The translations under genes were made by a program, and so were the position numbers. 64,000 nt of DNA from Flaccisagitta enflata. Taxonomy: Eukaryota. Below are positions 8,205 through 52,316 of the stretch, one piece after another. Within the stretch, counting starts at the first letter, position 1, and each line of letters opens with the position of its first letter. A model generated the notes under the pieces. The model was not told where the DNA came from. It ran no database searches and saw only the letters and a program-made list of their open reading frames with translations. The stretch is taken from NCBI GenBank assembly GCA_965153355.1, contig OZ231126.1:6014001-6078000 (forward strand), read 5' to 3'.

Positions 8205-8522
8205 TCAATCCTCGTCAATGAGACAGAATCGCGCCAGAAAATCTTCATCTTCATCATTCTCCTGCTTCGATGTCGCAAGAGTCAACGGAAGTCGTTGTGA
8301 CGCTGGAGGTGTCCAAGGCCCGACGAGATATTCGTCCTCGGCAAATGTGGAGACGGAAGAACCTTTAACGAGAACGTAGAGGAAATATTCCATGATGCCA
8401 GCAGACGACGATGTCGACGAAGACGAAGCGGGAGAACGATCGAGAAAGGCGAAGAACGGAGGCGAAGAAGTTATCGGAAGCTGCAGCTGCTGCTTATTTC
8501 CGTGCTTGTCTGACTGACATAG

Positions 8523-8559
<37 letters not shown>

Positions 8560-9839
8560 GGTTGTTGTTGTTGTGGTTGTGGTGGTTGTTGTTGTTGTTG
8601 TTGTTGTTGTTCCTGATGCTGTTGTTCATCTTCTTTTTCCCGACGCTTACGCCCTCCATGAAGCAGCGGCAAACGGAAATGCGGTTGATCGAAAGAGATA
8701 GATATGAAGACGCCATCTGGTTTAAGTACGGCGTGCGTCTGCTCGACGGCGTCGGCGTAAAGACGCGTCAACTCCGACGGTGGATTCCAAGGGTCGTGTT
8801 TGACGCCGGCCGCCAACACGTCCAACACGCCCTTTTCGATGACGACGTCGAATGTCCCGCGAGCGTAACGCGTGAAATTGAGGGAAAGGTCGGGTTGGGT
8901 GGAAATACGTCTTTCAGTTGCAACGTTAACGAGGTCATCTTTGTCAGCGCCGCTGATACGATCCCTAGCGTCCTCGCCATAATCATCGTCGCTGTCATTG
9001 AAACTCCCATTAGCACCGTCACGTGGATGAAGAACACTGCGGTTACCGCAATCATCATCATCACAATCATCATCGCCCGCGGAAACGAGGGAGAACATGT
9101 CGGCGCAGTCGTATTTAAGACATTCAGCGACTTCCGGTGGCACCAGATCGCTATTTGCAGTCCGTCTCTTCATCGTGGCGACGGCGGCGGGCGAGTAGTC
9201 CATACAAGTCACTCGAGGACGAAGACCGGAACTCGATCCCGATCTCGACTTGAGCAAAAGATCGGCTGCCAACTCCTCAGCCAACAAAGAAGTCCCACCT
9301 CCCAAAATCAACACAGACAAGTCGGAGGAATTCGCTGAATCGCGTTTGTTGTCATTGTCCATGTTAGTGTTGTCGTTGTCCATATTAGTGTTGTCGTTGG
9401 CCATATTAGTGTTGTCATTATTCACGTTAGTGTTGTCATTGTCCTTGTTACTGTTGTCATTATCCACGTTAGCGTTGTCATCATCCTCATTAGTGCTGAC
9501 ATTGTCCATGTTAGTGTTGTTATAGTCTACGTTAGTGTTGTCATTGTCCATGGTAGTGTCATTGAGAATACTAGCGTTGTCATTTACAATATTGGCGTTG
9601 TCTTTGGCACTTTTAGCGTAGTCAACAGCATCGAAGTTGTTCTTCTCAACCCCCTCAAAAGTGTTGTCCTCAGCTCCGTAATTTTCCCTACGATTGGCGA
9701 CGAGTCTGTCGAGGATGCGCATGATGCGGTCGCGCCAGACTGAGTAAGGTCCGAGCCATTCAAAACCGGCCTCTCCCCGGGTGAACCGGTCCTCCCAGTA
9801 ATCCCGCCGGCCGTAATCCACGTTCGTCTCAGCCGGCAT
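8205..9839 (-). CDS. EEF1AKMT4: EEF1A lysine methyltransferase 4-like (ECE2 methyltransferase-like), single exon, 544 aa
   Basis: Y..RDYWEDRF..FEWLGPY, SAM motif I VLILGGGTS, VTCMDYS, FDVVIEKGVLDVL..DPWNP, VLKPDGVFISISFDQPHFR; large Asn/Asp and poly-Gln insertions. Confidence 0.88.
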
Positions 9840-10606: not shown

Positions 10607-22092
<11,486 letters not shown>

Positions 22093-22589
22093 TTGCCCTG
22101 TCTGAATACTGCCCTGTGCGCCAGAATGTCAAAATTAAACTAGATTCGTTATTTCATTTCCAACTCAAAAAGGCATTAACAGTCCATGCAACAATTCTTT
22201 TGGTAAAGGTAGAAATGAGGTGAACAGAACGAGTTAACGAAATACGTAATCAAATAAAAACATAACGAAGTGTAACAAACAAATCAACGTGTAACAAAGA
22301 GGGGTCGATTGTATCATAGAAAATACTAAAGCGTCAACAGATAACGACCGTCCCTTTTTAGATGCGTCCTGTCAGTCATGTCAGTCCGCAGTTGGTTGGT
22401 TCGTTGATCCATCATGCAAACATTTAAATGGCAAGGCTATGGCAAGGCTTTCATCCAAAATGCAGCATCAGCGTACTCTCTGATTCTTTCATCTAATCCT
22501 TCATTCATTCATCTATTCAGTCATTTTTTCATTCACTCATAAACAACGTACAATTTATGAGGAATGATCGTTGGCCTACGTGGCCTTGT

Positions 22590-24962
22590 TTAAAACTTTC
22601 GGGGAGAAGAATCAAACTCTTTGAGATTTTGAGGCCACACCAAACTCGGGCATCCAGCGACCGGACAAACGGGTTGTTTGTTCTTCTCAAGCCTCGCCGC
22701 AGTCATTTGCAAGACGGCTTCCTTTTCGTATACATGTCCACAAGTATTGACAACCGGGTTCACGAAAGGCAGTTTGGTGATTGGACAGACGCGTTTGACC
22801 TTGTGACGTGTCACGCAAATGTCGCTTTCAGCGAGACTTTCCGGAGCGTCAAAAACCTCGAAATCGTTCTCATCGGCGTTAGTGAGTTCCGGTGCAGAAA
22901 TCTCGATGACGTCATTGTGGTCATTGGAAACGGTATGTTGAATGGGCAGTTTGATTTGCTGGATTTTGTGAGGCGTCAGGCAAATGTCACTTTTGTGGAG
23001 GTTTTCCGTGAGGTCTATAAAGTTGTTCTCAGTGGCGCTGGTGGGATTGGATGCAGAAACGACGACATCATTGTGGTCGTTGGTGACGAGGTATTGGACA
23101 GACTGCTTGGTTATTGGACAGACATACTGGATCGTCTGACGCGTCGTGCAAATGTCGCTCCCGTCGTGGCTTTGGGAGGCGTCAATAATCTCAAAATCAT
23201 TCTCATCAGCGCTGGTGAGGTTGGGTGCAGAAATCACGACAACGTCATTGTGGTCGTTGGTGACGGGATGTTGAAAAGGCATCTTGGTGATTGGTCTGTC
23301 GCTTTCGTGGAAGTTTTCCGTGAGGTCGATAACCTCATTCTCAATGGGTGCAGAAATCACAACGGCGTCGTGGTGGGCGTTGGCGTTGGCGTTTCTGGCA
23401 TTGGCGTTGGCGTTTCTTCTGGCAGAAAGTTGTAGTTTTTTGCGATGTTTCTTTCCCGCGAGATGGCATTTCATCGCCTTTAGGCTACCGACATGTACGC
23501 CACAAACATCGCACATACCGGCTTCCTTTGACGGTTTATCAAATCCGCCAACACCGACCTTCTCGGCCGGTCCGTTGACACGGACTTGGCAAACGTCTCT
23601 TCCGCCGGTCTCACGGATCTTCTTAGCGTGCTTCTTTCCGTTTAGATGAATTTCGAAGGTGGCTGTATAAAAGGGAGGAGGAAGAGGAGGAGAGGATATG
23701 GACCGGAGAAAACGACTTAAGGGGATAATGATGAGGAAAAGATGGGTGAAATTTGCGGGTAGTGAGGGGAGAAACAAGGCTATTTGAGAAATCAATGTGA
23801 AAAGATCAAAGGAAAATAGCAATATGAAGAAAATTCTAGTAGGAAGAATTTTTAACTAGTCAATAGTCATCCAAAAATTGCAAAAGATCAGCGGTACCCG
23901 ATGCCATGCCCTGCTTAGAGTGATCAGGTGAAGCAATAGAGAGTGGGGCAGCAGCTCCAAAGGGCCGATGTCCTTTAAGAAACAGGAGTGTATTTCCAGA
24001 CGTCCTGTGAAGGCCTTTGGGGCTATTTTCCATAGAATCGAATGAGAAAATAGAATTTATCTCAATTTTTTCCCAATTTTCATGTTATCTAATCTGACTT
24101 TTGCATTTATTTCATACTTCTATCAATTTTCCATGCAATTCAATAGGGCTTTCACATTTTCAAAAATTTGGTAAACTACACGTAATTCAAGGGTAATTTT
24201 GAATTTTTAAAAATCATTTGTTGATTTTCCGTGTTATTCAATGGGAATTTTGCATTTCTTCATTCATTCTTCATTTCTTATTGTTTAATGAGAATTTGAG
24301 GCTTGTAAGCATTGGCGGGAGGGAAAGTGATGTACATACGGACTGACAGATATACGGATGGACAGACATATGGATTTTCACCCGTGTCCTAAAGGAAATC
24401 GGCCCTTAGGGGCCGCTGCCCAAAAGGGGGACCGACCACAATGCCATAGGTAAAGGAAGGAAAAAGTCATGAAGAAGAAAGTCAAGTACTTGAAGAACCA
24501 GTGCAAGAGACCTCGATTGCCGACAGCGACGTCGCAAAACACGCAATGAAAACGTCCGGTGGGGCCATTAGCTGTTTTGGCCGCTTTGGCCGCTCTGGTC
24601 ATGTGTTTCTTTCCCTGGCAATGCGACTCGAGCGACTTGTTGCTGATAAAGCCGATGTTGCAAACCTCGCAGATCTTACGTTTCCTTGTCGGCGTCGGAA
24701 TCGGCGTCGGTGGAAGAGTCGGTGGAAGCGTCGGTGGAAGCGCCGGAGGCAGTTCCGGAATTGCGATGGATTTGTAAGGGCCGAAGCGCATTACATTGGC
24801 GGCGTGCTCCTGCTCCGTCAGATGAATGTCGAGCAATGACCGCGTGTTAAAAAATTTGACGCATGGAGTACATCGATACTGATTGTTAATAATCTTAACC
24901 ATAGGCAATAGGGGCTTGGACCCCGCACCAGGGTGCGAAGCCGCTACGGGGGTGATGTCCAT
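22590..24962 (-). CDS. Matrin-type zinc finger (x4) / SIM-repeat / NSE2-type SP-RING protein, paralog 2
   Basis: Exons 24962-24512 and 23662-22590; phase-1 splice completes CVFCDVAVGNRATFEIHLNGKKH. Other fingers CTPC..HLTEQEH, CEVC..HCQGKKH, CDVC..HLAGKKH. C-terminal SDICVTRHKVKRVCPITKLPFVNPVVNTCGHVYEKEAV..CPVAGC resembles the NSMCE2/Mms21 SP-RING. Confidence 0.82.
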
Positions 24963-25652: not shown

Positions 25653-28600
25653 CTAGCTCTCGAGTGTGAGCAGTTCCGTTTGCGGCGTGAGATTAACTAG
25701 AGACGATGAGGCAGCGGCCAAGTCAGCGATGGAAATGCGGCCGTGCAGACGAATGAATTTGGCCACTTCTTGCATTTCCTCCGTGGAAATGTGGATGAAT
25801 TTGCCACGATCGTCGATCACGCCGGTCAATCGACCCATCGCTTGAAGATCCTGAAAAAAAGAGAAAATAGGGAGAGTAGGAAGAAGAAGTTAAAGAAGGT
25901 TAGATAGGGTTCACCGACCTGTTGCTTGATGATCCTAGAGGATGAAGGAAGAAGAGAGTACAGGATTGAATAGGGAAAATATCCCATGACTTGGTCAGAT
26001 AGGGTTCATCGACCTAAATTGCTTGATGATCCTGGAGGAGGAAGGAAAAACAGAGTAAAGGATTGAATGGAGAAATCAACCCATGACTTGGGGGATTGGA
26101 AGGGGAGAAGAGGGGAAGCTCCTGAAGAGAGGTCAAGGCTCGCAGGCAGGCCTGAGCGATTGTATTGGGTATTGGTATTGGGTTTACAATATTCTTGTGT
26201 ATTGGGTTTTCCCAATACACGTAGTTTATTTTGTTATTCTACCAATACAATACTATACAATACTGGGAATACCCCGCCAAAAGATACAAAAGAAAACAAC
26301 ATAATTCTGCATTGGAAAAAAATATTTAAAATCTGAAAAAAAGGTTAGAAAGCCCTGTAAAAACGATCTTATCCTGTTCTGATACATTCCAACCTCCTAA
26401 CGGTTTTGGCCCTCCACAGAATGTGTTTTAAAAACATCCAATTTGAAAAAAATCATTTTATCAAATTTCTCTCATTCAAAGCAGCTGAACCTTTCATCTT
26501 TAATTCATTTAATATCATTTCCAAACGAATTGAGCTAAATACATGAGATTGGGCTTATATTAAAGATAATTCAAAAAATTTTATGAAATTGTTGGAACAG
26601 ATACGGTGGGGACATTTCAAATCAAGAAAACTTTTTTTTTTTCACCACTTCCAATATATTGCTCAAAGAAGATGGATCCTCTGAGTTGTTTTCAATGGTC
26701 GAAATGTTTAATTTTTTAAACAAAGTGAGCATATCTAAAATTTAAATTGAATTTGAATCAAGTTTGGTAAAATCCTAAAACTTTTGCTCAATATCTTATT
26801 GGGAACCACTAATTTTATGTTCAAAACCAAGCTGTAGTTTTTCAAAACAATGTGAGCTCTAAGTAGCTCCTCCTCATAGATTCTGAACTGAACAGTAAAA
26901 AATCGTTTTTTAAAAGCTCTCTGGATCTTTTTACAAAATTGATCTACTATCTCTAGAAGCAAAGTTATGTCGTTTTCTTTTGTATCATTTGGCGCGGTAT
27001 TCCCTGTATTACAAAAAAGCTGATCTGAGGAAAGTGAAATATATAAGAGAAAGACTGAAAGAGATGAAGAGGAAGAGGAAAAGCATTTCTAGGTCTGAGG
27101 GAGAACAAAATAAGTGGAAAAGGTGAGAGATAAAAGGAGAAGAGGAGGAAAGTAAAAGTGGGTGAGGGATAAAAAGAGGAAGAGGAAGAAGAACTTATGA
27201 GATTAGGTGGGTTAGAAATAAAGACAAAGAAGAAGAAGAGGAATAAAAATCTATAAAAGAAACAATCAGTGGTCAGAAGCTGGAAGGATGAAAAGGAGGA
27301 AGAGGAACAAAATAAAGAATTTACAGGAGAGAGAGAAAGAGACAGGGAATGATAATGAAAAACAAAAACAAATAAACAAAAAAAAAAAAAAAAACAGAAT
27401 TGGATCTATACAAAAAAGAAACAAATAGATAAGTGTAAAAAAAAAGAAAAAAAATAAGGATAAGACAGAATAACAGACAGAATAACAAAAAAATAAAATA
27501 AAACTTTTATCACAATGAAAAAAAATATATATGAAAATTTTTCAGCTCTTCTAATATAACCAGATATTTATATGATGATCAAAATGACGATACTTTCTTT
27601 AAATTATTAGTATATCATCTATGATTAGTTTGATATATATTAATACTTATTACTTATTATTAAAACTATGTAATCTCATACACATATTATATTGTATTGT
27701 ATGATATGATAATGTATTATATACAATTTTAATAGATATTAGGTCTCCCAGAATAACTCATTTTGTTAAAAAGTACTAATCCCTGCGGCTTTTTTCGAAG
27801 ATCATACACCACTGAATAAGAATTCAGCAGCAAAAATTTTTTTTGAAATTTTTTTATGGCAGAAGTATTAGGCCAGAGGTGATATAAGATCAAAATTTCA
27901 AAATGAGAATTTTATAAATCTGATTGCAGATTCATAATCCTTGCAAAAAACTGTCAAAAGAAAGTGCTCTTCTTTTATTGATATTCCTTCAGGAACGTTG
28001 TCTAAATCAAGGTCAAAGATCTAGATCGGGTCAAAATTGCTCTTTTGTTTAAAATTGACCTTATTTAGATCTTTGACCTCAATCCCAGAAGGTCTCCCAG
28101 AATAACTCATTTTGTTAAAAAGTACTAATCCCTGCGGCTTTTTTCGAAGATCATACACCACTGAATAAGAATTCAGCAGCAAAAATTTTTTTTGAAATTT
28201 TTTTATGGCATCTAAATTTCTAAATCTAAAAATCTAAAAATCTAAATCTAAATCTAAATCTAAATCTAAAAATCTAAATTTCTAAATCAAGGTCAAAGAT
28301 CTAGATCGGGTCAAAATTGCTCTTTTGTTTAAAATTGACCTTATTTAGATCTTTGACCTCAATTTTGACAATCTTCCCGAAGGAATATCAAAAAAAGAAG
28401 AGCACTTTCTTGTGACAGTTTTTTGCAAGGATCATGAATCTGCAATCAGATTTGCAAAATTCTCATTTTGAAATTTTGACCTTATATCACCTTTGACCTG
28501 ACACTTCCACCATAAAAAAATTTTAGAAAATTTTTTTCCTGCTGAATTCTTATTCTTTGGTGTATTTTCTTTGAGAAAAGCTGCAGGGATGAGTACTTTT

Positions 28601-28978
28601 CAATAAAATGAGTTTTTCTGGGCGGTCTAATAGATATTGTATTGGTATTGTATTGTATTGTTCCAATACTTGAAAGTATTGTATTGGTATTGTATAGTTG
28701 ACAAAAATGCTATATAGCTCAGGCCTGCTCGCAGGAGGTAGAATAGAGGAAAAAGTATGTGCAGGGGGTAAAGGCAAGGTTGAGGGAAAGGGAAGGAGCA
28801 GAGGAGATGAAGAGGGAAAGGGCTGAAGAAAAGGAGGAGGGCTGGGGAAAAGGAGGGCTGGGGAAAAGAAGGGGGGCTGGGGAAAAGAAGAAAGAGGGGG
28901 TGGAGGGCAGTGAAGATTGAAACACACACACACACACACATTCACACATTCACACATTCACACATTCACACATTCACA

Positions 28979-29021
<43 letters not shown>

Positions 29022-30313
29022 CCACAGAATTGTGAATGAACTGACACACACATCATTCGACAGTATCACTAGCTCCACATTTCCACACTAACTTGCACTC
29101 TCTGGATCGCTTCTTGCGTCCTGAGAGAAAAATGCGAGGCTAAATCCTCCATGAGAACGACTTTTTGCTGGCGAATGAAGTCGACAAACTGTTGCAGCAG
29201 CGCCTGTGACTCCTCTTCCGTCGCCAACTGCGCTTCCCCTTCCTCCTCCACCGCGAATTCGGCTTTTAGTTTCAAATACTCCTCGTACTCCCGCGCTTCC
29301 TCCTCTTCTTTCCTCTTCCTCTCTTCTTCCTCTTTCGCCGCTTCGACGGCTTCTTTCTTCGCTTCCTCCTTCTTCCTCTCTTCTTCCAATTGTTCCTCTC
29401 TCTGCTTCCTCTCTTCCCTTTCTTCGATCTCCATTTCCCGCATTCGTCTTTTCTCCGCTTTTTCTTCCAGTTTTCTCATCTTTTTCGCGCCGATTTTTCC
29501 GTCCGGTAAATTCACGTAATCCAACAGATCGTCGTCAACTTCGTCCTCATCCACGTCCGCTCTTCCTCCGCCTCTTCCGCCACCACCACCTCTTCCACCA
29601 CCGCCACCTCCTCTTCCGGCGCCAAAATTGGCGTCGTCGTCATCGTCCGATTCGTCGGCGGGGCGTCCAGCGGCGGCGCCACGCATTCCACGACGCCGAC
29701 GAGCTCCGGCCGGCATCGCACGGGCGCCGGCGTTTCCACGCTGATTTAAAATTGAAAAGAGATTTTCATAAAGAAGCATGAAGAAAGAGACATCTGCAAG
29801 TCAGCTACTACTGCACAACTGCACGGTCTACTTCCACAGTCAAAAGTCCATGCATGTCTATTCCGAAGTCATCTCTCATCTAGAAAATTTCATCTACATT
29901 TCGAAGTCAACTGGAAAATTTGACTCTCCCATTCCTTTCTAATGTCAGTATAACTTGCGCAATGGTTTACACCGACCAAGAATCTCTCGCTCTCGATCTC
30001 TCTCGCTCTCGCGCTTTCTCGCTTTCGCGCTTTCTCGCTTTCTCGCTCTCGCTCTTTCTCGCTCTCGCGCTTTCTCACTTTCTCGCGCTTTCTCGCTCTC
30101 TCGCGCTTTCTCGCTTTCTCGCTCTCGCGCTTTCTCGTTCTCTCGTTCTCTAAATCTAAGCCATTTGCTTTCTGGACCTACCTCTCTGGCCGCGTTAGGA
30201 ATCCCTCTGGGGGCATCATCCTCCGCTTTCGATTCCTTGGATTTGGCGAGGAAACTCAGCAGCGCCAAAATCGCCACCAAGACACCCGCGACTCCCACCA
30301 ACAACTCGATCAT
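25653..30313 (-). CDS. DDRGK1: DDRGK domain-containing protein 1 (UFBP1, UFMylation adaptor)
   Basis: Phase-0 exons 30313-30182, 29740-29093, 25850-25653: N-terminal TM anchor, [14 protein letters not shown], coiled coil, [32 protein letters not shown]. Confidence 0.97.
26147..28727. mobile_element. hAT-like non-autonomous element in DDRGK1 intron 2
   Basis: 11-bp TIR CAGGCCTGAGC, 8-bp TSD CTCGCAGG (26139-26146, 28728-28735), subterminal (GTATT)n. Confidence 0.85.
27740..28629. mobile_element. Palindromic MITE nested in the hAT-like element, with an internal partial duplication
   Basis: 27740-28030 is the reverse complement of ~28335-28629; 8-bp TSD ATAGATAT; 28091-28210 repeats the left end. 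Confidence 0.75.
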
Positions 30314-30633: not shown

Positions 30634-33600
30634 TCACACCGCAAACAGGTCGTACATGTTCCCTTCTACGCCATCTTCGCGCTTCAACGCGTCATTTCCA
30701 CTTTTCAGGGCGGCTTCCCATCTTTGGATGATCACAGCCAAATGGTTCTTGATTCTCGTCCCGTCCAAATCGTTGATGCGGTCGCGGATGTTGGATTGCG
30801 TCTTCCGGAGGCGTTCTAACAGCGGACGCAACTCGGCGTCGACTCCGACGACGACGGAAGTCGGGGATTCGGCATTGGCGTCGATGGCGTCACGAAGAGC
30901 TTCCGGTGAGACGAGGAGATCAAAAAGTTGGACGACGACATCGACCAAATAATAATCCACACCACCACCGCCGCCGGAACGCGCCGTCAACTGATGCAGA
31001 AAACGCGACGCTTGAAGAAAGAAGGCGAAAGGCGGAAGTCGATCGAAGTAAGCCGCGCTGAGGAGATTCTCGATGGGTTCGTCGATTTTGATGGGACGAA
31101 TCGTCGAGGAGGACGATGTTGTGGTAAAGGCGGAGACTCGAAGGATGCCGTGGAAGGACAAATAACGACGAAGTTGAATCTCGGGAAAACCAGGAGCCAA
31201 TCCCAGCAAAATCTGCTGAAGATGATGGAGATGAGACGCGACGGAGGAGGAAGATGAGGAGGAAGATGAGGATGAAGAGGTGGATGAGGAGAGAGAGGAG
31301 TTGGAGGGCGAGTCAAAGTCGACGGTGGTGAGGAATTCCGTCAATGACCACATGCCCGAACCCACGCGGATGAGCAACCTGAGGAAGAGAAGAAAGAGAG
31401 GTAAGAGAGGAAAAAGAGGAATGAGGAGGAGAAGATAAGGATAGGGATTGGTAGTTGGGAAAGGGAGGGAGAGACGGAAGGAAGAGGACAGGAGAAGATA
31501 GGATGAGGATGGGGATTGAATGGAAAGATCGAAAGAAAAAAGAGGAGATGGAAGAGAAAGAGAAAAGCAGAGGAGAGGAGAGAAATGGAAGGAAAAGAAG
31601 GAGAACAGGAGGAGAGAGAAGAGGAAAGGAAGAAAGAGAAGGAGAGATTGATGAATGAGGATGGGGATTGGGAGAACCGAACAGGAAGGGAAGACGGAAG
31701 GAAGAAGCAGAGCGGAGTCACAAAGAGAGAGAGCTCATATACATGCATATATCATTAACGACCACCATCCCGTCTACATAGGCTAAAAGGACACTACAGA
31801 TACGCAAAACAGTTTTCAGCACTATACTGTTCGATTTGACGATCGTCTTGCGCTTGATCGACGGCCGACTGCAACGCGGTCGAGATGCAGTCGTGAAGCA
31901 ACGATCTTGTTTCCACGTCACCGCTAATCGTCTCGTCCCAAAGCAGATAGAAGAACAACAACGCATACCGGATGTGAGTCCCTTCTGATTCTGACGAATC
32001 ATCGCTTACAGCGCCACATCTGATATTCAAATGATTGAAGTAAGAGGAATCATTAACAGTGGGGTATGTTTGATTAAAATGAGAAAATGAAGTAAAACAT
32101 GGGAAATAGAGTACATTATCCCTTTCCGATCATTTTTCTTTGATTCTTTTCGTTTTATATATAAACTCTTGGTCATTGAACAAACATCTGATCCATATCA
32201 TTTGGATAGGGCTACACAAATCGAAACGTCAGAGCTATCTTTGAAATAGAACCAGAACTGTAATCACAAATACAGAATCGTCAGCACGCAACCGGCAGAC
32301 GTACCTCGCTTGTTCAAAGTCGGCTTCCTTTGCGCTGTGACCATCGTCTTTGGTGTCTGGGTCATTCCGACCGTTCATCTCTTTTTTGTTTTCGTTTTCG
32401 TTAAATTTCTTCAATTCTTCTTCGTTATTTAGCAGGAGACATTCGCGAATTAATGAAAGCAGCTGGCGAAGAGAATCTCGAAAAAGGAACGGAAGGGGAA
32501 AGGATCGCAGACGGGAGGAGGGAGTCGGCGCTGTAGCACTTGAATTAGGCATGGAGGCATAAGAGGAAGATGTGGGAGAGGAAGCGTTGGTCGAGGAAGC
32601 AACAGTTGACGAGTGTTTTTGTTGATCAGTTTTCGACGGGAAATTGAGACGATCGCGAAGATAATCAATTTGCGAGTCACGAAAGAAGAAATGAGACGGA
32701 CTGGAGGAAGGAAAGGATAAAAGAAACAAGGAATTGTCATCTTATTCGAGTCAAACAAGCAAAGTAAACAACAATAACTTTGCAAAGTAAACAACAATAA
32801 TTTTGCTCTATCCCATGCAGGCAGTGAAACCAGCAACCATAAATATCAAAGAATTTTACAATTTTCCAATGTTGCACGAAAACGTCTTATCATTTTCATC
32901 ATGCCAAATATACAACCGTCTAACTTTCACTAAGATACATAAAAGATAATACGACACGAAACAACTACAGCATACATAGCGTCATCAGTTACTCCAAAAA
33001 CTAGGGCTAGGAGCTGCCTAATAGGAAGCGTCAACTTCCAAACGGAACCGCTTGGCAAGAGCTGCTTCGTTGAGAAACAATGACTCACTAAAACATACCT
33101 GAATGTCATTTGGCTTTGAGACGACGTCGGTGAGGCGGCGCCATTGAGCGGCGCTGCGCAAAATTCCAACGCCGATGCGGGAAAAACGACGCCGAGATTT
33201 TTCAACGCCGCCGCCCACGCCAAAGGCGAAGGAACGCGACGCTCATTGGCGTAATAGGCGCTCAAAGTGGAGACGGAGGAAGAGGAAGAGGCGGGATGAA
33301 AGGAAGGGATGGAGAAAGCCGTTGATGAGGAAGAATTCGCGGTTGGGGAATCCAAGAGAGAAGTCATTAACATCAGAAGAATGGCGTCTTTCTCCTCGTC
33401 GTCGTCGAGGCCATCGGGGAGGAGGGAAGAGAGACGAGATGAAGAAGAAGAAGAGGAGGAGGAAGAGAAGGAGGAAAGAAAGGAGGCGAAAACCGGAGGA
33501 CCAGAGTCAAGCGCCGTCTTCAATCGTCTGAATAGGATACAAAGGAAATTAGACAGAGAATATATGTGCAATATAAAACTTATCATCATCACGCTCCAAG

Positions 33601-34730
33601 AACAAATGACGAGAATCTCAAAGTCACAAGGCCGAATACAGACGTATGTAAAGGAAAGCGAGCATATCATCATTGAGCACACTCCAACCCCCCCTCCCCC
33701 CAAAAAAAACAACATTACTACATATTTTCGGACCCCTTTCCACTGTTTTTCCTCATGTCCATTACCTTAAACCTGGGTCCTCTTCCAAGCTCCCTCGATC
33801 CAACAAACAATGGAATCGTTCCTTGCGGAACAAACGGATCCCACCCCCACCTCCTCCTCCTCCTCCTGGAGGATATTTCAGCGCGGATTCCGATTTGATC
33901 GAGCAACGACGGATAATATAATCGGTATAATCCGGAGACAGATTCTCGAAGAAATTAGTGGCATTGGATGACGAGGTATGATCGGGAGAAGACGCGGGAG
34001 AGGAAGGGCACGACGAGGAGGAGGGATTCGTGGTGGAAACGGGAGTCGTCGTCTTTTTCGTCGTCGTCATCTTCTTCTTCATCTTTTTCATTTTGTTTCT
34101 CAACGAGAAAAATTTATCCCGCGCATCGCCATCTAAGCTTTTCCCCTTTTTTTTCGCCACTTCTTCCTCATCATCATCGTCCTCCTCTTGATCTTCCTCT
34201 TCAGACTGATCATCCTCGGCTTGACGCCGACTCTGCGTCCGGATTAGGTCGTCGAAATCCCACAAACTCGCCGTCGTCGATTTCGCGCTCGTCGTCTTTT
34301 TGGTACAATTCCCGACTTTGACTTGATTTCCGGTCGACTGACTGGTTCTGCTTTTACCACCTCTGCCTCTGCCTTGACCTCTACCACCTCCTCCTCCTCC
34401 CCCTCTGACCAAATTGTTATTCTTCCGTTTCCGACGAGGTCTTCCACTTTTTCCCGCGTCACCGTCGTTGTCCGAAGCAGACACGGACGGATTCGAGACG
34501 GACTCGTCTTCCGAAGATGGACCAACACCCGCGGCAACGACAGACGGACGGACAGAGGCGTGTCCGTCATGGAGGACGGATGAATCTTCTTCGTCGTGAT
34601 GATCGACGGACGGATTGGCCGCCAGCATCGAGGAAAAGGCGACAAGCGTGGATTCGTCCGCGGGATCGTTGGCCTTATCCAACGAGTCGTAGGATTCATT
34701 GAGTGAGGGGTCCATCATCGTCATCATCAT
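30634..34730 (-). CDS. SLF2/FAM178-like protein (SMC5/6 localisation factor 2-like), tentative
   Basis: Phase-2 exons 34730-33766, 33527-33099, 32700-32305, 32019-31804, 31378-30634. Disordered N-terminus, helical C-terminus ending SNIRDRINDLDGTRIKNHLAVIIQRWE..EGNMYDLF, similar to SLF2 [35 protein letters not shown]. Gene model stronger than the family call. Confidence 0.6.
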
Positions 34731-35410
34731 CGCCTCACAATGGCAGAAACATGGGGAGCAGCATCCGTGGCCAGTTGAGCAAGATGATCTACACTTGCGG
34801 AGTGGATACTAACCAGTCCAAATGTGGTGGGCACGAGATTCATTGGCACCGTCGTAACTTAAATTGAAATCGAGTCAGTTTAAACTTATCCATCATTATT
34901 TATTGTTATACACTACGTTGAATTTAGCTTTCATTCTGTAAATGAATAAATTTATTCAAATTCAATAATTCTCGACCAAAAGGTACAAGTCAGGGCTCAC
35001 ACATAGCCTATACGTATACCCAAACAGAAATAAGTGGAGGAGAGCCTCATAAGCCCTTGAGTAGTAATAGCAGTAGCGATCGATCCTCTTACGATCTCTG
35101 ATCTTAGCAATGATCAGTTAAACCACTAAATTAGAAAAACAACTAGGAAATTTCAGTTCAGTATTAATCGGTATCACAGTATGAAATGTAAACAAAAAGC
35201 TTCAAAATTTATAGTATATAATAGATAGTATAATAGATAGTATAAAATAGATAAATCACTTAATAAACGAGCTCATTAGGAAATCGGAAGTAATATGCAT
35301 CATCTGTTTTTCTCTGAAGCAAAGCAGACTAACGTGAACGAACGAAAGAAGCGGGGAAAAATCGCAACTGAAAAATTTCGAGACGACAAAAGATTCCCTC
35401 CCCACCAAAG

Positions 35411-38377: not shown

Positions 38378-40799
38378 CACCAAAGCCTGGTCCAAGAAAA
38401 ATATAACAGACCCAAAAATACAAAATAATTGCAAAAGCGCATAAACGCAAAAGCATTAGATGTTCAGCGGTACCCTTGCAGTGCCTGAGTAAGTTGTACC
38501 TGAAGGAGTCAATGATATGATCTATGCAGCACACATATGGGGAATTTTCTCCTTCTCGATCCTTCTCCTCCTCCATCACTCCCCCTCAAATCCCAGTCTC
38601 AAGGCCCAAATTCCAGTCTCGAGGCCCAAAAATCAGTCTTGAGACCCCAATCCTAGCCTCAAGGACCAAATTCAAGCCTCAAGGCCCAAATCCCACCCTG
38701 GAGTTCCAGCTTCCAACCTTAAGCCCTAAATCTGGGTCCCTTGGCTGAGAGTTGGACCTCTAGACTGGGATTTGGACCTTGAGGGGGGGAGGGGTAGAAA
38801 GGAGGAAAAATTTCCCATATGTGTGAAAGCAGGTCATAGACCCCTTTGGAGTCGCTGCCCAAAACAAGTCATTCTAGGATTGTATATGGTCACTGGTCAG
38901 CAGAACCCGATGCTCTGCTTGCAGTGATTAGCTGAAGAAGTGGAGTGAGAACAGGGCAGCGGCCCTAAAAGGGCGAAGTCTTGTAGGACACAGGGGTGAA
39001 TTTCCTTACATCCATCCATCCTGAGAGGTCAGATTTTAGGCCTAAGAGGGTAATTTTGAGGAGTCATGGGGCCTATTTCAGGCCAGAGGGATAAATTCAA
39101 GCTTGGGAGGGATGATTTATGATTCTAGAGGGCTGGTCTTGAGCCAAAGAGGGCTGATTTTGGATCTGAGAGAGCCAATTAAGGATCTGATAAGGGTGAT
39201 TTTAGGTCTGAGAGGGTTGATATGTGCCTCTTAGGCCTGAATGAAGCAGATTTGGAATTAAAAGGCCTAGGGGGGACGTAAGAATGAATGTATGTACAGA
39301 CAAACAAAATGAAAATGAAATTCCCCCCTGTGTCCAACAGGACATCGGTCCCTTGGGACCGCTGCCCAAAAACGATGAGACATGACTCTTCCATCAATGT
39401 TGACACGCAGACGCCCCATTTTCGAGCATAGAGATGAATTTTGAAGTGCCCGGACACTACATCACCGCCAAAAAACACAGGTGGCTACGTGTCAAAAACA
39501 ATCTCATATAATTCCCAGGCCACCATTGTAAAGAACAATCAAACTACGAGCATTATATTCAGAATTGCAAATAAACATCTGTTTACCAATTATTGAGACA
39601 AAATCAATCTGTCAAATCTAAACAAAGATATTCTACGACATGTGGATTTTTCCACCGCTTTGGGCTTGAAAAAAATCTTTATTTTGCCCATGAATTTTAC
39701 CTGGATTGCTTGAGGCAAAATCGAAGGAGATAAAAGATGGTAAAAAAATTCCCTATGCAGATCGTTGCAAAATTACAAAAAAAATACCAATAAAATCTTT
39801 GTTACGAAAGAAAATACCTGTAAAATCTATATTACCAAAAAAATACCTATAAAATCTACATTACCAAAATAATACCTATAAAATCGATATAAGAATAGAC
39901 AATTAGATGCGGATTTCGCTTTTGAAAAGTTTTTTCAACTTTTATGATATGCCCATGGATTTCAATCGATTCCATAAAGTGATGGTTTTCAAAATTCAAA
40001 CTAAATCTGTAGAAAAATTGACAACTGCGTGTTGCTTACTAGTGGTTTAGAGGTAATAAAGTCGAAAACAAGCAACCAAATTGGGGCAATATATAGAAAT
40101 TGATGTGGAACATACCAGGAAATACTCATCTAATATCCAATATTTTATTGATGCTCACAAGCAGTAATGAAGCATCTACAATTGTAGCACTACTGTCTCA
40201 ATGATTGGTAAACAGATGTTGCGAGGTGGCCGGGGTGAAACAAGATTACTACCACTGTGCGCCGTGAGTTAAGCACGACAAACCGACCGACAGAGGTCAT
40301 GAGTTCTTATAGATGTACTTTGGCCGTTTGGCGCACGTCAAAAGAATGAACAAGGCAAAGTAGGCCAATAAGGTGCGACGTGTGGATCGTCATACGAATG
40401 CGTGACAGACAGACGGACGGACACAGCCAGTTATCGTGGTGCTTTGTCGCACCTAATAAGTTTGTCTTGGATATCACATGGGCGGTCCTTTTTTCCTGTT
40501 TCTGACTTTCTGCCTATATGTGTCTATCTTTGTCAGTCCATCTGTCTATCTTCAAATCGGTCCTGACGGGACAGGCTTTACATCCGAGGCAGTCATCCAC
40601 ATTTTATACCCTTCCAATGAAGTATGATGGGAAGAGAGAATCTTTTTTTAGTCGCGTGCACGCGACTCTACAACCCGCTCCGTCGGTCTGTCCGTCCGTC
40701 GGTCGGTCGGTAACACTTAGCTTTTTTGCGTCGTTTTTGGTCATTTTGGGTTATCTGGAGTTATTTCGAGTCATTTTAAGTCATCTGAAGACTTACTCT

Positions 40800-49105: not shown

Positions 49106-50870
49106 ATGAAAGAAAGAAAAGAAAGAACGATCCCGATCTGCGACGTGTCAGTAAGGAACATCGATAAGATTTGTTAGGTGATTCACTCCTAACCAAACTT
49201 TCCACTCGCACCTTAAAAAATGAAATCTTTAAAAATAGGCGTTGTCACGCAGACATAGTAAAAGATGAAACAATAGAATGATGAAAAATTCTGAGGAATG
49301 GGTGAGAGATGAACCGGGGTGCCAATTCTGTATGGCTGTCGCGTAGCAAGGATTTGCCAACGAAGGCTGCCGCACTTTCTTTACATCTAAAATCCTTCTG
49401 CTTTCTTACTAAATTAGCCCTCTGACGCTTAATTGATAATCATGTTACTCACCTACTATTGTAAAAACAGGTTTAACTTCACATTATTAAGGTTATCACT
49501 ACATTTTGCTCTTTATTCTAGAATACTTCTAGACTCCTCTCTACTTCTAGACTTCTCTCTTCCTTTCCTTCATCCTCATCTTTTAATTTTGATCAGTTTT
49601 CCCCACCAAGTGCCACACCTGCCGCACCTGGCGACTTGCCTGCCGCGTAGCATTGCTACCCTGCTACCCTGAATCGGCACCCCGGGAGATGACCACGTTG
49701 AATCCCAAGATTACCGGCTACGTGCAGCGGTGTATCGTTGTCTTCATCCACTTGAAAATAGTCCACTTCCTTCTCGATTGGTTTCTCAGATTCGGCAGTG
49801 GCTGTATTGATCAATGACCTAGTAGTTGAGTCACACAATCCCGAGTCCAACCGTTCATCTTTGTAAATATCACAAGAGTCCGACTTCGCGTCAATCCCAA
49901 AATTCTGGGCGAAGCGACTAAAATCGTCTGGCATCATAGAATCGCATCTCTCTTCGAAAAAATCGTCATCTTCTTCGTCGTCGAATTCTCTCCGAATAAC
50001 CACATCTGCCGTCGTCGAGAGTTCGTGAGACGGCGTTGGTATTGTAGTAAGCTGTATTCGTGATTCAAGTTCCTCAATTCCGATAGCTGCATTGTCACTA
50101 TTGTCAATGTCCTCGCAAGCGGTTTTCAGTGAATGTAAGGATGTGACTTGAAGAGAAGAAGGGACAGAAGAAGAAGAAGAGGAAGAGGACGAGAAAGAAG
50201 AGTGGCGGGTATGCGGCGGAGGGGGTGGCATCTGGGTTGTGATTGAGTTCTGCGACATCGTCGATGATGGAGAGATTGTCACTTTGTAAGCCGCTTTATT
50301 GTTAGACTGTTGATGCCGGCGCGATGATAATTGTTAAGCCGCTTTATTGTTAGATTGTTGATGCCGGCGCGATGATGACTGTTCATGTTGTTGTTGTTTA
50401 GGTAACGATGAGTCTTCTTGTGACCAAGATTCCACCGCAACTCGGTTGTCGAGAGCGTAAGCGCATCTGAACTCGCCGCCTTTGGAGGTCGACGACGACC
50501 CGCTAAAGACGCCTCTCGTCGTCGATGACCCACTGGACATGCCTCTGGTTGTCGACGAAGCGTTGGAGGTGAAGGAACACGCCTTTGACGAGAAATAGCC
50601 TTCGTCCGCGGCGCCGGAAGAGGGACGGATGGAAGTGGTAGAGACGGTCGAGGATGCGGTGGAGGAAAAGTCCGTCATCCGCTTGGCAACGAAAGGATCG
50701 TCATTTGGATGTTGTTGTCGTTGAAGGCGTTGTTGTGGATGCGAGAAAGCGCACGAGGATGATGTGCGAGGCGGAGCGTCTTTGGCTACGAGCCGGGAGC
50801 TCAATGACTTCGTCGACGCCGTCGTTGTCCTCGTCGTCGTCGTCGTCGTCCGCGGGGGATCTGACGACAT
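46180..50870 (-). CDS. cact: NF-kappaB inhibitor Cactus/IkB (ankyrin repeats, DSGxxS-type degron, C-terminal PEST)
   Basis: Exons (50870 or 50258)-49715, 48505-48292, 47894-47742, 47110-46978, 46437-46180. RLDSGLCDS degron; DEDNDTPLHVAVI, RGDTALHIAA, LPQNLEVTNYDGLTCFHLAA, KSGRTALHFAVE ankyrins; acidic tail. An in-frame TAA at 50336-50334 makes the start ambiguous. Confidence 0.92.
49314..49685. mobile_element. hAT-like MITE in IkB intron 1
   Basis: TIR CCGGGGTGCC(A/G)ATTC, near-perfect 8-bp TSD GAGATGAA/GAGATGAC. Confidence 0.65.
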
Positions 50871-51136
50871 CTTTTCCTCGAATTGAGTCTTTATTAATAT
50901 TTCCTTTTCTGTATTTTTATTTCCTTCTTTTACACCCGATGGGCAAAGTAAAAGAATGAAATCGTCGTTGAGATATAAATCTATGTAAAATCCGTTCAGT
51001 GAGAGTCAGTATTGCCTATTGGAATAAACGTCGAAGAAGGTGCGTAGTTGGTAGTCGTTTACGAAGGGTAAGAAGCGAAGAGGATTGAATGAAATCTGCT
51101 GACGACGGAGAATGTAGAAAAGGGATTATTAAAGTC

Positions 51137-51572: not shown

Positions 51573-52316
51573 AAAAAAGAAAAAAAAACGAAAGAAAGAA
51601 AAAAGGAGAGAAAGAAAGAAAGAAAGAGAGAACCAGAGAAAGAAATTAACAGAGCAAGAAAGAAACAGAGCAAGAAAGATGGAAAGAAAAAGAAAATAGT
51701 CGCAAAAGTGATGGTCAATGGTACCTGCTGTTATAGAGTGTTTTGGGTGTTAGGTGGTTAGAGCAGTGCCCCGAAGGGCCGATGACCTATGCTGTTTTTA
51801 TTTGAACCTCAAGGCTTTAATTAGAGCCTGGAGGCTATATTTGGGGCCCATTTGGGCCCTGAGCTTGATGAGCTTGAGGCTGGGATTTAAGCTTGAGGCT
51901 GGAATTTGAGCTTTGAGGCTAGGATTCGGGCTTGAGACTATGATTTGAGCCTTGGGGCTGGGATTTGAGCCTTGGGGCTGGGATTTGAGCCTCGAGTCTG
52001 GATTTGAGCTTTGAGGCTTTGGTTTGAGCCTTCAGGCTGGAAATTGAGCCCTCAGGCTGAGATTTGAGCCTCAAGGCTGGGATTCAAGCTTCAGGTAGGA
52101 TTTGAGCCTCGAGGCTAGGATTTAGGCCTCGAGACTAGGATTTGGGCCTCGAGACTAAGATTTGGGCCTCGAGGGGGGGGGGACGGAGAAGAAGAAGAAG
52201 AAGGAGAAGGAGAAGGAGAAATTTCCCCTATGTGAGAAAGCATAGGTCATCGGCCCCTTCGGGGCCGCTGCCCAAAAGGAAATAGAAAGAAAGAAAAAGA
52301 AAGAAAAAGAAAGAAA

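Follow-up and report, generated by a model that had tools for sequence, protein, structure and literature searches.

We describe a minus-strand gene in a 64,000-nucleotide stretch of Flaccisagitta enflata DNA (NCBI GenBank assembly GCA_965153355.1, contig OZ231126.1, positions 6,014,001 to 6,078,000 of the forward strand; this whole stretch is referred to below as the window, and all coordinates are given in its numbering), the product of which joins four U1/matrin-type zinc fingers, an array of repeats with motifs resembling SUMO-interacting motifs (SIMs) and a single-zinc SP-RING of the NSE2 type. We regard it as an even call whether this gene encodes a SUMO E3 ligase with an SP-RING of the NSE2/Mms21 type at its core and the SMC5-binding arm lost or never present; such an enzyme would most likely be independent of SMC5/6 and aimed by its SIMs and fingers. 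To our knowledge, every characterised NSE2-type ligase acts within SMC5/6. That small RING modules take part in domain shuffling is unsurprising in itself; the architecture found here is real and, as it appears, unique.

An NSE2-type SP-RING joined to zinc fingers and a repeat array

The earlier note on this DNA had proposed an intact SP-RING, and an SP-RING of the NSE2 type was recovered with all four zinc ligands aligned to those of human NSE2 (Table 1). The Pfam family zf-Nse (PF11789) matched at an E-value of 2.9e-18 (65.9 bits against a cut-off of 27), human NSE2 (9lwj_J) matched over chain residues 151-216 with an E-value of 1.3e-9, and yeast Mms21 matched at about 0.01. The ligands C, H, C and C, which form the single zinc site of the zf-Nse type, are invariant in all 26 aligned sequences. 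In an AlphaFold model covering the exon 2 product, the SP-RING reached predicted local distance difference test (pLDDT) values of 94-98, and the best fold matches were the NSE2 SP-RING 2yu4 (Z 9.0, root-mean-square deviation 1.9, 67 residues aligned) and yeast Nse2 7qcd_C (Z 8.8), with another yeast Nse2 match at 8.3. A search of the ESM Atlas with exon 2 returned generic RING clusters with a best score of 0.82, which we take as a lead only. A Siz/PIAS SUMO ligase was considered and ruled out, as neither exon showed a match to zf-MIZ, SAP or PINIT in Pfam at E-values up to 1.

The note had contrasted the protein with NSMCE2/Mms21, and by comparison it is not a canonical NSE2, as the helical SMC5-binding N-terminus of that family finds neither a match nor room in it. 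Matches in the PDB cover the RING part of NSE2 only, the first 248 residues consist of four fingers of 23 residues each with linkers of at most 44 residues that are rich in Pro or in Asn/Ala, and the exon 2 model contains one helix, which continues finger 4. Because the defining N-terminal feature of the family is missing, we classify the product as an NSE2-derived SP-RING protein and not as NSE2.

Between the fingers and the RING lie the four repeats of 40-60 residues that had been noticed previously, with units measuring 41, 59, 52 and 42 residues (R1 to R4); the VVIS, VIDLT and IEIS motifs ascribed to them are likewise present, in the forms VVIS, VIDL, VVVIS, EIID, VVVS, FIDL, VIEIS and EVFD. 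The units are 67-71% alike in DNA (E-values of 1e-34 and 2e-25) and follow a common layout, in which a VVVIS-type motif is followed by an acidic run, EIID or VIDLT, the element SDIC.T and the first RING loop (CPITK..PF..PV.N). Rather than being free-standing SIM cassettes, the units each duplicate, in part, the stretch leading up to and into the RING. The copies end where the genuine RING goes on with Cys-Gly-His, the remainder of the RING follows the last unit only, and Pfam zf-Nse matches one stretch only, at that last unit. All pLDDT values of the repeat region lie below 50 in the model, so that this region is probably flexible.

The SDICVT segment of R4 (ESLAESDICVT) aligns with the acidic pre-RING stretch of both human NSE2 and yeast Mms21. 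In yeast Nse2 this stretch is the 'Loop SIM1' that tethers the donor SUMO (PMC8636563). By this alignment, R4 contains the putative counterpart of Nse2 Loop SIM1, and tethering of a donor SUMO is predicted for it.

The N-terminal part carries the four Cx2C-x12-H-x5-H fingers that had been predicted, with the GKKH signature terminating fingers 2-4, in agreement with the three expected, and lacking from finger 1. Pfam assigned exon 1 to zf-met (2.1e-9) and zf-C2H2_jaz (6.3e-9), and exon 2 to zf-met (1.4e-7). The sole solved relative of the fingers is ZFa (1zu1), a protein that binds double-stranded RNA (dsRNA), to which the match is weak (E-value 0.0014); going by this match and by family membership, the fingers may bind dsRNA. 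The Asn/Ala-rich linker behind finger 4 is encoded by a GCCAAC-type hexamer repeat, and the assembly and the DNA sequencing run X1, which bears the same organism label, have in-frame versions of it that are unequal in length.

The window is eukaryotic in character, with GT..AG introns, microsatellites, high-copy repeats and a GC content of about 42%, and the span 22590-24962 singled out in the note coincides precisely with the coding span of a two-exon gene. A stop codon lies in frame seven codons upstream of the ATG at 24962, and the spliced exons give 507 codons, open and in frame. Finger 3 exists solely in the spliced product, where its x12 and x5 spacing is restored exactly as in fingers 1, 2 and 4, and both its split and the intron sequence are common to a tandem paralogue described below. 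Half-fingers are kept at both exon edges in both copies, which would be pointless unless they were spliced together. The only support for the predicted exon join is this rebuilt finger and its conservation in the paralogue.

The intron carries a very high-copy repeat (approximately 23900-24520), covered in X1 at a depth of about 88,000-177,000 compared with about 150 in the unique flanks. Short copies of this repeat were seen elsewhere in the window (19631-19965, 13826-13876, 17215-17265, 38954-39371 and 52249-52279), and Rfam and tRNA scans of the window, including the intron repeat, gave no match.

Table 1. Coordinates and properties of the SP-RING gene, its parts and its tandem paralogue in the window (aa, amino acid residues)
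Feature	Position	Strand	Description	Basis
Exon 1	24512..24962	-	aa 1-150 and first base of codon 151; ATG at 24962	Open reading frame, sequence, spliced translation
Intron	23663..24511	-	GT..AG, phase 1, cuts finger 3; pyrimidine tract before AG	Sequence
Exon 2	22590..23662	-	aa 151-507 and TAA stop at 22592-22590	Open reading frame, sequence, spliced translation
Finger 1	24804..24872	-	aa 31-53, no GKKH	Pattern; weak Pfam zf-C2H2 match, aa 29-49
Finger 2	24603..24671	-	aa 98-120, GKKH end	Pfam zf-met and zf-C2H2_jaz, best stretch aa 97-120; ZFa 1zu1, E-value 0.0014
Finger 3, first half	24512..24545	-	CxxC and 7 residues, end of exon 1 (whole finger, aa 140-162)	Spliced translation
Finger 3, second half	23628..23662	-	H-x5-H with GKKH, start of exon 2	Spliced translation; same split in paralogue
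Finger 4	23445..23513	-	aa 201-223, GKKH end	Pfam zf-met best stretch; model pLDDT 57-84
Asn/Ala-rich hexamer-repeat linker	23370..23423	-	aa 231-248; length varies	
Repeat unit R1	23247..23369	-	aa 249-289, short type: VVIS, VIDLT, degenerate first RING loop (PITK..PF..PV.N)	
Repeat unit R2	23070..23246	-	aa 290-348, long type: VVVIS, acidic run, EIID, SDIC.T, CPITK loop; further zinc ligands absent	
Repeat unit R3	22914..23069	-	aa 349-400: VVVS, FIDLT, SDIC.T, degenerate loop	
Repeat unit R4	22788..22913	-	aa 401-442: VIEIS, acidic run, EVFD, SDICVT segment	
SP-RING, NSE2 type	22650..22787	-	aa 443-488	Pfam, alignment, AlphaFold, fold match
Tandem paralogue	10607..22092	-	Exons 22092-21844, 20195-19925 and 11418-10607; 443 aa	Predicted

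Relatives, the tandem paralogue and the genomic surroundings

The note had recognised the combination from no described family, and the searches uncovered no second case. A word-indexed search of 5.8 billion proteins yielded 11 matches, all of them restricted to the RING-bearing end (the last ~100 residues; 25-31% of the query), and HMMER, run exhaustively against 1.84 billion representatives, yielded 280 matches at E-values up to 0.001. The best 150 of these 280, together with four proteins from the word-indexed search, were scanned for patterns: the finger pattern was present in 83 of the 154 proteins and the NSE2-like RING pattern in 60, with no protein containing both a zf-met-like finger and an NSE2-like RING, and hence no finger pattern among the 60 RING-bearing proteins. 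Any protein that unites finger and RING would be expected to rank among the best HMMER matches. In the literature searched (supplements lay outside the search), no description of zf-met fingers joined to an SP-RING was found, and the terms 'SP-RING' and 'matrin' co-occur in no paper of the collection. Exon 1 had no match among 3084 candidate longer proteins at E-values up to 0.001. No related locus was recovered elsewhere: of 18 pattern matches among JGI metagenome contigs and 27 in IMG/VR, 0 were confirmed, and an exact 30-base pattern gave none.

The nearest relatives form what we call the SIM-SIM-SP-RING family (P0001, P0003-P0012, P0014, P0018 and P0025, with their cluster members), to which the last ~100 residues of the protein are 45-67% identical. 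Its members share an end composed of a DSVIVLDD-type motif, VF.F, a DSVII.SP-type motif, an acidic run, DDSICVT and the RING, in which the pre-RING unit is single and not repeated, and they show no evident SMC5-binding domain. Their N-termini differ, being Ser/Ala/Pro-rich or, in P0003, of another kind; for P0001, a model built from a shallow alignment of 19 rows gave pLDDT below 50 for nearly all of residues 1-284, which suggests that its N-terminus is disordered. Ten clusters that were looked up carried no names and no accessions, and all derived from ENA, JGI or Logan assemblies only; the family is represented solely by metagenome or transcriptome assemblies. As the relatives are finger-less and have other N-termini, the fingers are an addition to a family of NSE2-like RING proteins with SIMs that already existed.

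Phylogenetic analysis of 65 RING segments (84 columns) recovered a SIM-SIM-SP-RING clade with support of 95/96 that holds the gene and its paralogue, which are sisters (100/98) and adjoin P0001 and P0003 (97/94). Three SIM-bearing proteins at first labelled as members of the family (P0034, P0078 and P0111) fall outside the clade, in an unresolved part of the tree; the deeper branches are not settled because the segment is short. A separate observation concerns the N-termini of the finger-less P0001, P0004, P0005, P0007, P0010 and P0011, which share a PPSPR.LLR...SFASISAASF block, RYNTRS followed by KEN, R.ALPE and an invariant STPS(K/R). We take these motifs to resemble degradation and cyclin-dependent kinase site motifs, presumably a hint of cell-cycle control of the parent family.

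The tandem paralogue was modelled by eye, checked by script and predicted from sequence alone. A copy of exon 2, 52% identical, lies at 11419-10610, and the 5' part of the intron together with the end of exon 1 matches 18927-19965, with 86% identity around the donor site (24211-24552 against 19631-19965). The predicted product has three intact fingers, of which one is divided by the shared intron, three repeat units where the gene has four, and an intact SP-RING. The 8.5-kb intron of the paralogue carries inserted repeats; it contains on the minus strand a 152-residue open reading frame (16424-16882) that has no Pfam match and that we presume to be a fragment of a retroelement reading frame, and this frame and a tandem array (14264-14817) explain some of the growth of that intron. 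The proposed first intron of the paralogue contains T-rich tandem repeats and a long compound (CA)n(GA)n microsatellite (20780-21050 and 20380-20560).

Over 268 codons, gene and paralogue differ by a synonymous divergence (dS) of 0.45, with a ratio of nonsynonymous to synonymous divergence (dN/dS) of 0.37 overall, 0.215 in the RING, 0.27 in the repeats and 0.32 in the last unit. These values show purifying selection since the tandem duplication, with both copies held by selection since an old event as the numbers of fingers and repeats changed.

All recognisable coding stretches in the window, between 3029 and 51005, lie on the minus strand, including both SP-RING genes and long open reading frames at 30634-34808 and 49656-51005, and the plus-strand frames resemble antisense readings of low-complexity or repeated sequence. 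Gene clusters that run in one direction may offer a hint to the lineage. Directly upstream of the gene is DDRGK1, of the UFM1 pathway (25653-29800, minus strand; Pfam DDRGK 2.6e-33 at 29069-29800 and 8.1e-19 at 25653-25889), which has at least two exons separated by a large AT-rich intron; nothing evident ties it functionally to the SP-RING genes, and in the ESM Atlas it matched DDRGK clusters from mixed phyla. A minus-strand reading frame of 544 codons at 8208-9839 has methyltransferase-like ends, with a weak Methyltransf_12 match (E-value 0.0067), and long inserts of low complexity, Asn/Asp-rich and poly-Gln, break it up.

Sequence variation, expression and alternative explanations

Several observations weigh against a SUMO E3 ligase of NSE2 origin, and they are set out here along with the explanations to which they might belong. 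The first concerns the SIM-like motifs, since a loose SIM pattern was counted 6 times in the protein compared with 3.3 +/- 1.65 times in shuffled sequences, 198 of 2000 of which reached 6; by itself, the count does not exceed chance. The argument for SIMs is based not on pattern counts but on the positional conservation of the motifs in relatives, two DSVI[IV]-type motifs being conserved across the family at fixed pre-RING positions.

Further such observations come from sequence variation and from RNA. Run X1 covers all 30 bins of the gene and differs from the assembly in eight codons, five of them with a changed amino acid and three silent, and in one indel, an in-frame insertion of 6 bases behind 23375 in the Asn/Ala linker. 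Marine metatranscriptome contigs (X3 and X4) span 22300-23316 only, covering the 3' part and flanks; at ~97% identity, they show 17 changed codons (5 silent, 12 not), so that amino-acid-changing substitutions dominate in both comparisons, and they may represent RNA of a close relative or DNA carry-over. No read crosses the exon junction in any RNA run. The poly-A run X7, of which about 6% was read, gave one partially fitting read in a low-complexity Pro-rich stretch, which leaves the exon join without read support, and expression in the X7 sample looks low.

These data bear most directly on the possibility that the gene is a decaying or non-catalytic duplicate, comprising separate transcripts for the fingers and, from an internal Met, for the SIM-RING part, or evolving under relaxed constraint and expressed weakly or not at all. 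The near absence of poly-A signal and the excess of amino-acid changes would suit such a duplicate, as would a dN/dS of 0.66 in the finger part, the loss from the paralogue of the ligands of two ancestral fingers, and the differing repeat number of the two copies. Set against this, the frames of 507 and 443 codons are both still open at the divergence given above, the dN/dS values of the RING and the repeats are low, neither X1 nor the metatranscriptome contigs contain a stop or frameshift, the half-fingers at the exon edges persist in both copies, and the ~97% relative has kept all zinc ligands of the RING. We consider decay or loss of catalysis unlikely, while finding it the least improbable of the alternatives.

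Somewhat less probable still is a ubiquitin ligase resembling the SUMO-targeted ubiquitin ligases (STUbLs), in which a SIM array would precede a RING/U-box-like domain at the C-terminus, and this domain would engage a ubiquitin E2 instead of Ubc9. The layout is that of RNF4, with SIM-like motifs N-terminal and the RING at the extreme C-terminus, followed by only 19 residues; fold matches to the TRAF6 RING (Z 8.5) and the CHIP U-box (8.4) come within 1 Z of those to NSE2, with RNF4 itself at 7.4, and Pfam zf-RING_UBOX also exceeds its cut-off (28.8 against 25.2 bits). In sequence, however, the domain is far nearer to NSE2, as judged from the zf-Nse score and from the E-value for human NSE2 compared with 0.083 for TRIM21; the RING span contains five Cys/His only, compared with the eight of a two-zinc RING; and the donor-SUMO loop of Nse2 can be aligned to the segment before the RING.

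That the protein is simply the ordinary NSE2 of this lineage, a subunit of SMC5/6 with an unusual N-terminus, is very improbable, for although the RING and the loop before it plainly belong to the NSE2 type, fingers and low-complexity linkers stand where the helical domain would be, two tandem copies differ in the number of fingers and repeats, the nearest relatives have at least two other, unrelated N-termini, and the one modelled, P0001, is predicted to be disordered there.

Comparison with known ligases and proposed function

The catalytic part is predicted to work most like NSE2/Mms21 (NSMCE2), with which it shares the zf-Nse SP-RING, the C-H-C-C ligands and an acidic and hydrophobic pre-RING segment aligning with Loop SIM1, and from which the protein departs in its tandem paralogues, in its early end behind the RING and in having fingers and a repeat array in place of the helical SMC5-binding N-terminus. 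With RNF4-type STUbLs it has in common a layout of several candidate SIMs before a C-terminal RING fold, by which SUMO would be read and a modification then made, whereas its RING is of the single-zinc NSE2 type and shows no eight-ligand, two-zinc cross-brace; the expected modifier is for this reason SUMO and not ubiquitin.

ZNF451, a chain-extending tandem-SIM SUMO E3, is a further ligase that pairs SIMs with zinc fingers, but it is not known to contain a RING, and its C2H2 fingers are of a different type. A PxRP spacer between the SIMs is a feature of ZNF451, and none was noticed here, where no dedicated test for it was made. Membership of the ZNF451 family was ruled out by the presence of a RING and by the lack of any match to Zf-C2H2_ZNF451 in Pfam at E-values up to 1. 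The gene thus resembles RNF4 and ZNF451 in its logic and is a member of neither group. The fingers themselves, with their Cx2C-x12-H-x5-H spacing, GKKH ends and long linkers, are like those of the dsRNA-binding U1/matrin-type proteins (JAZ/ZNF346, ZFa and zf-met), which are without an SP-RING; none of the 83 finger proteins in the scan had an NSE2-like RING.

For SP-RING ligases, published work describes SIM-like elements that clamp donor and backside SUMO, activation of Nse2 by DNA binding of Smc5, and a C-terminal SIM2 in yeast Nse2 that holds the backside SUMO (PMC8636563, PMC12751080); in the latter, a review, two correctly spaced SIMs are described as able to clamp donor and backside SUMO (PMC12751080). 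The present protein lacks a counterpart of SIM2, since only 19 residues follow its RING. In the mechanism that we propose for a SUMO ligase of this composition, the RING would bind Ubc9~SUMO as Nse2 does, the pre-RING SDICVT segment would tether the donor SUMO in the manner of Loop SIM1, and the upstream SIM-like motifs, possibly increased in number as the pre-RING unit underwent unequal crossing-over, would hold the backside SUMO, anchor the enzyme to proteins already bearing SUMO or poly-SUMO, or both. Such an enzyme would spread or extend SUMO where SUMO is already present, and the four fingers may direct it to a nucleic acid, be it dsRNA or some other, taking the place of the Smc5 arm.

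A more speculative extension, which we hold to be rather unlikely, is that the protein is a lineage-specific NSE2 derivative acting as a self-contained, nucleic-acid-sensing 'SUMO-targeted SUMO ligase' with a role in genetic conflict, for instance in the silencing of repeats or of invading nucleic acids, its four dsRNA-type fingers acting as the switch that replaces the Smc5 arm and its expanding SIM/pre-RING array spreading or extending SUMO on targets that carry SUMO already. The tandem duplication, the variable repeat number and the high share of amino-acid changes would, in that case, be the marks of such a role.

If the gene is indeed a SUMO ligase independent of SMC5/6, it would mean that the NSE2-type catalytic module can be re-aimed away from that complex, and it would provide a natural case of a ligase that both reads and writes SUMO, as well as a compact tool for studying how the number of SIMs and nucleic-acid binding tune SP-RING activity. 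The SIM-SIM-SP-RING family, so far represented in environmental data only, would gain its first genomic anchor.

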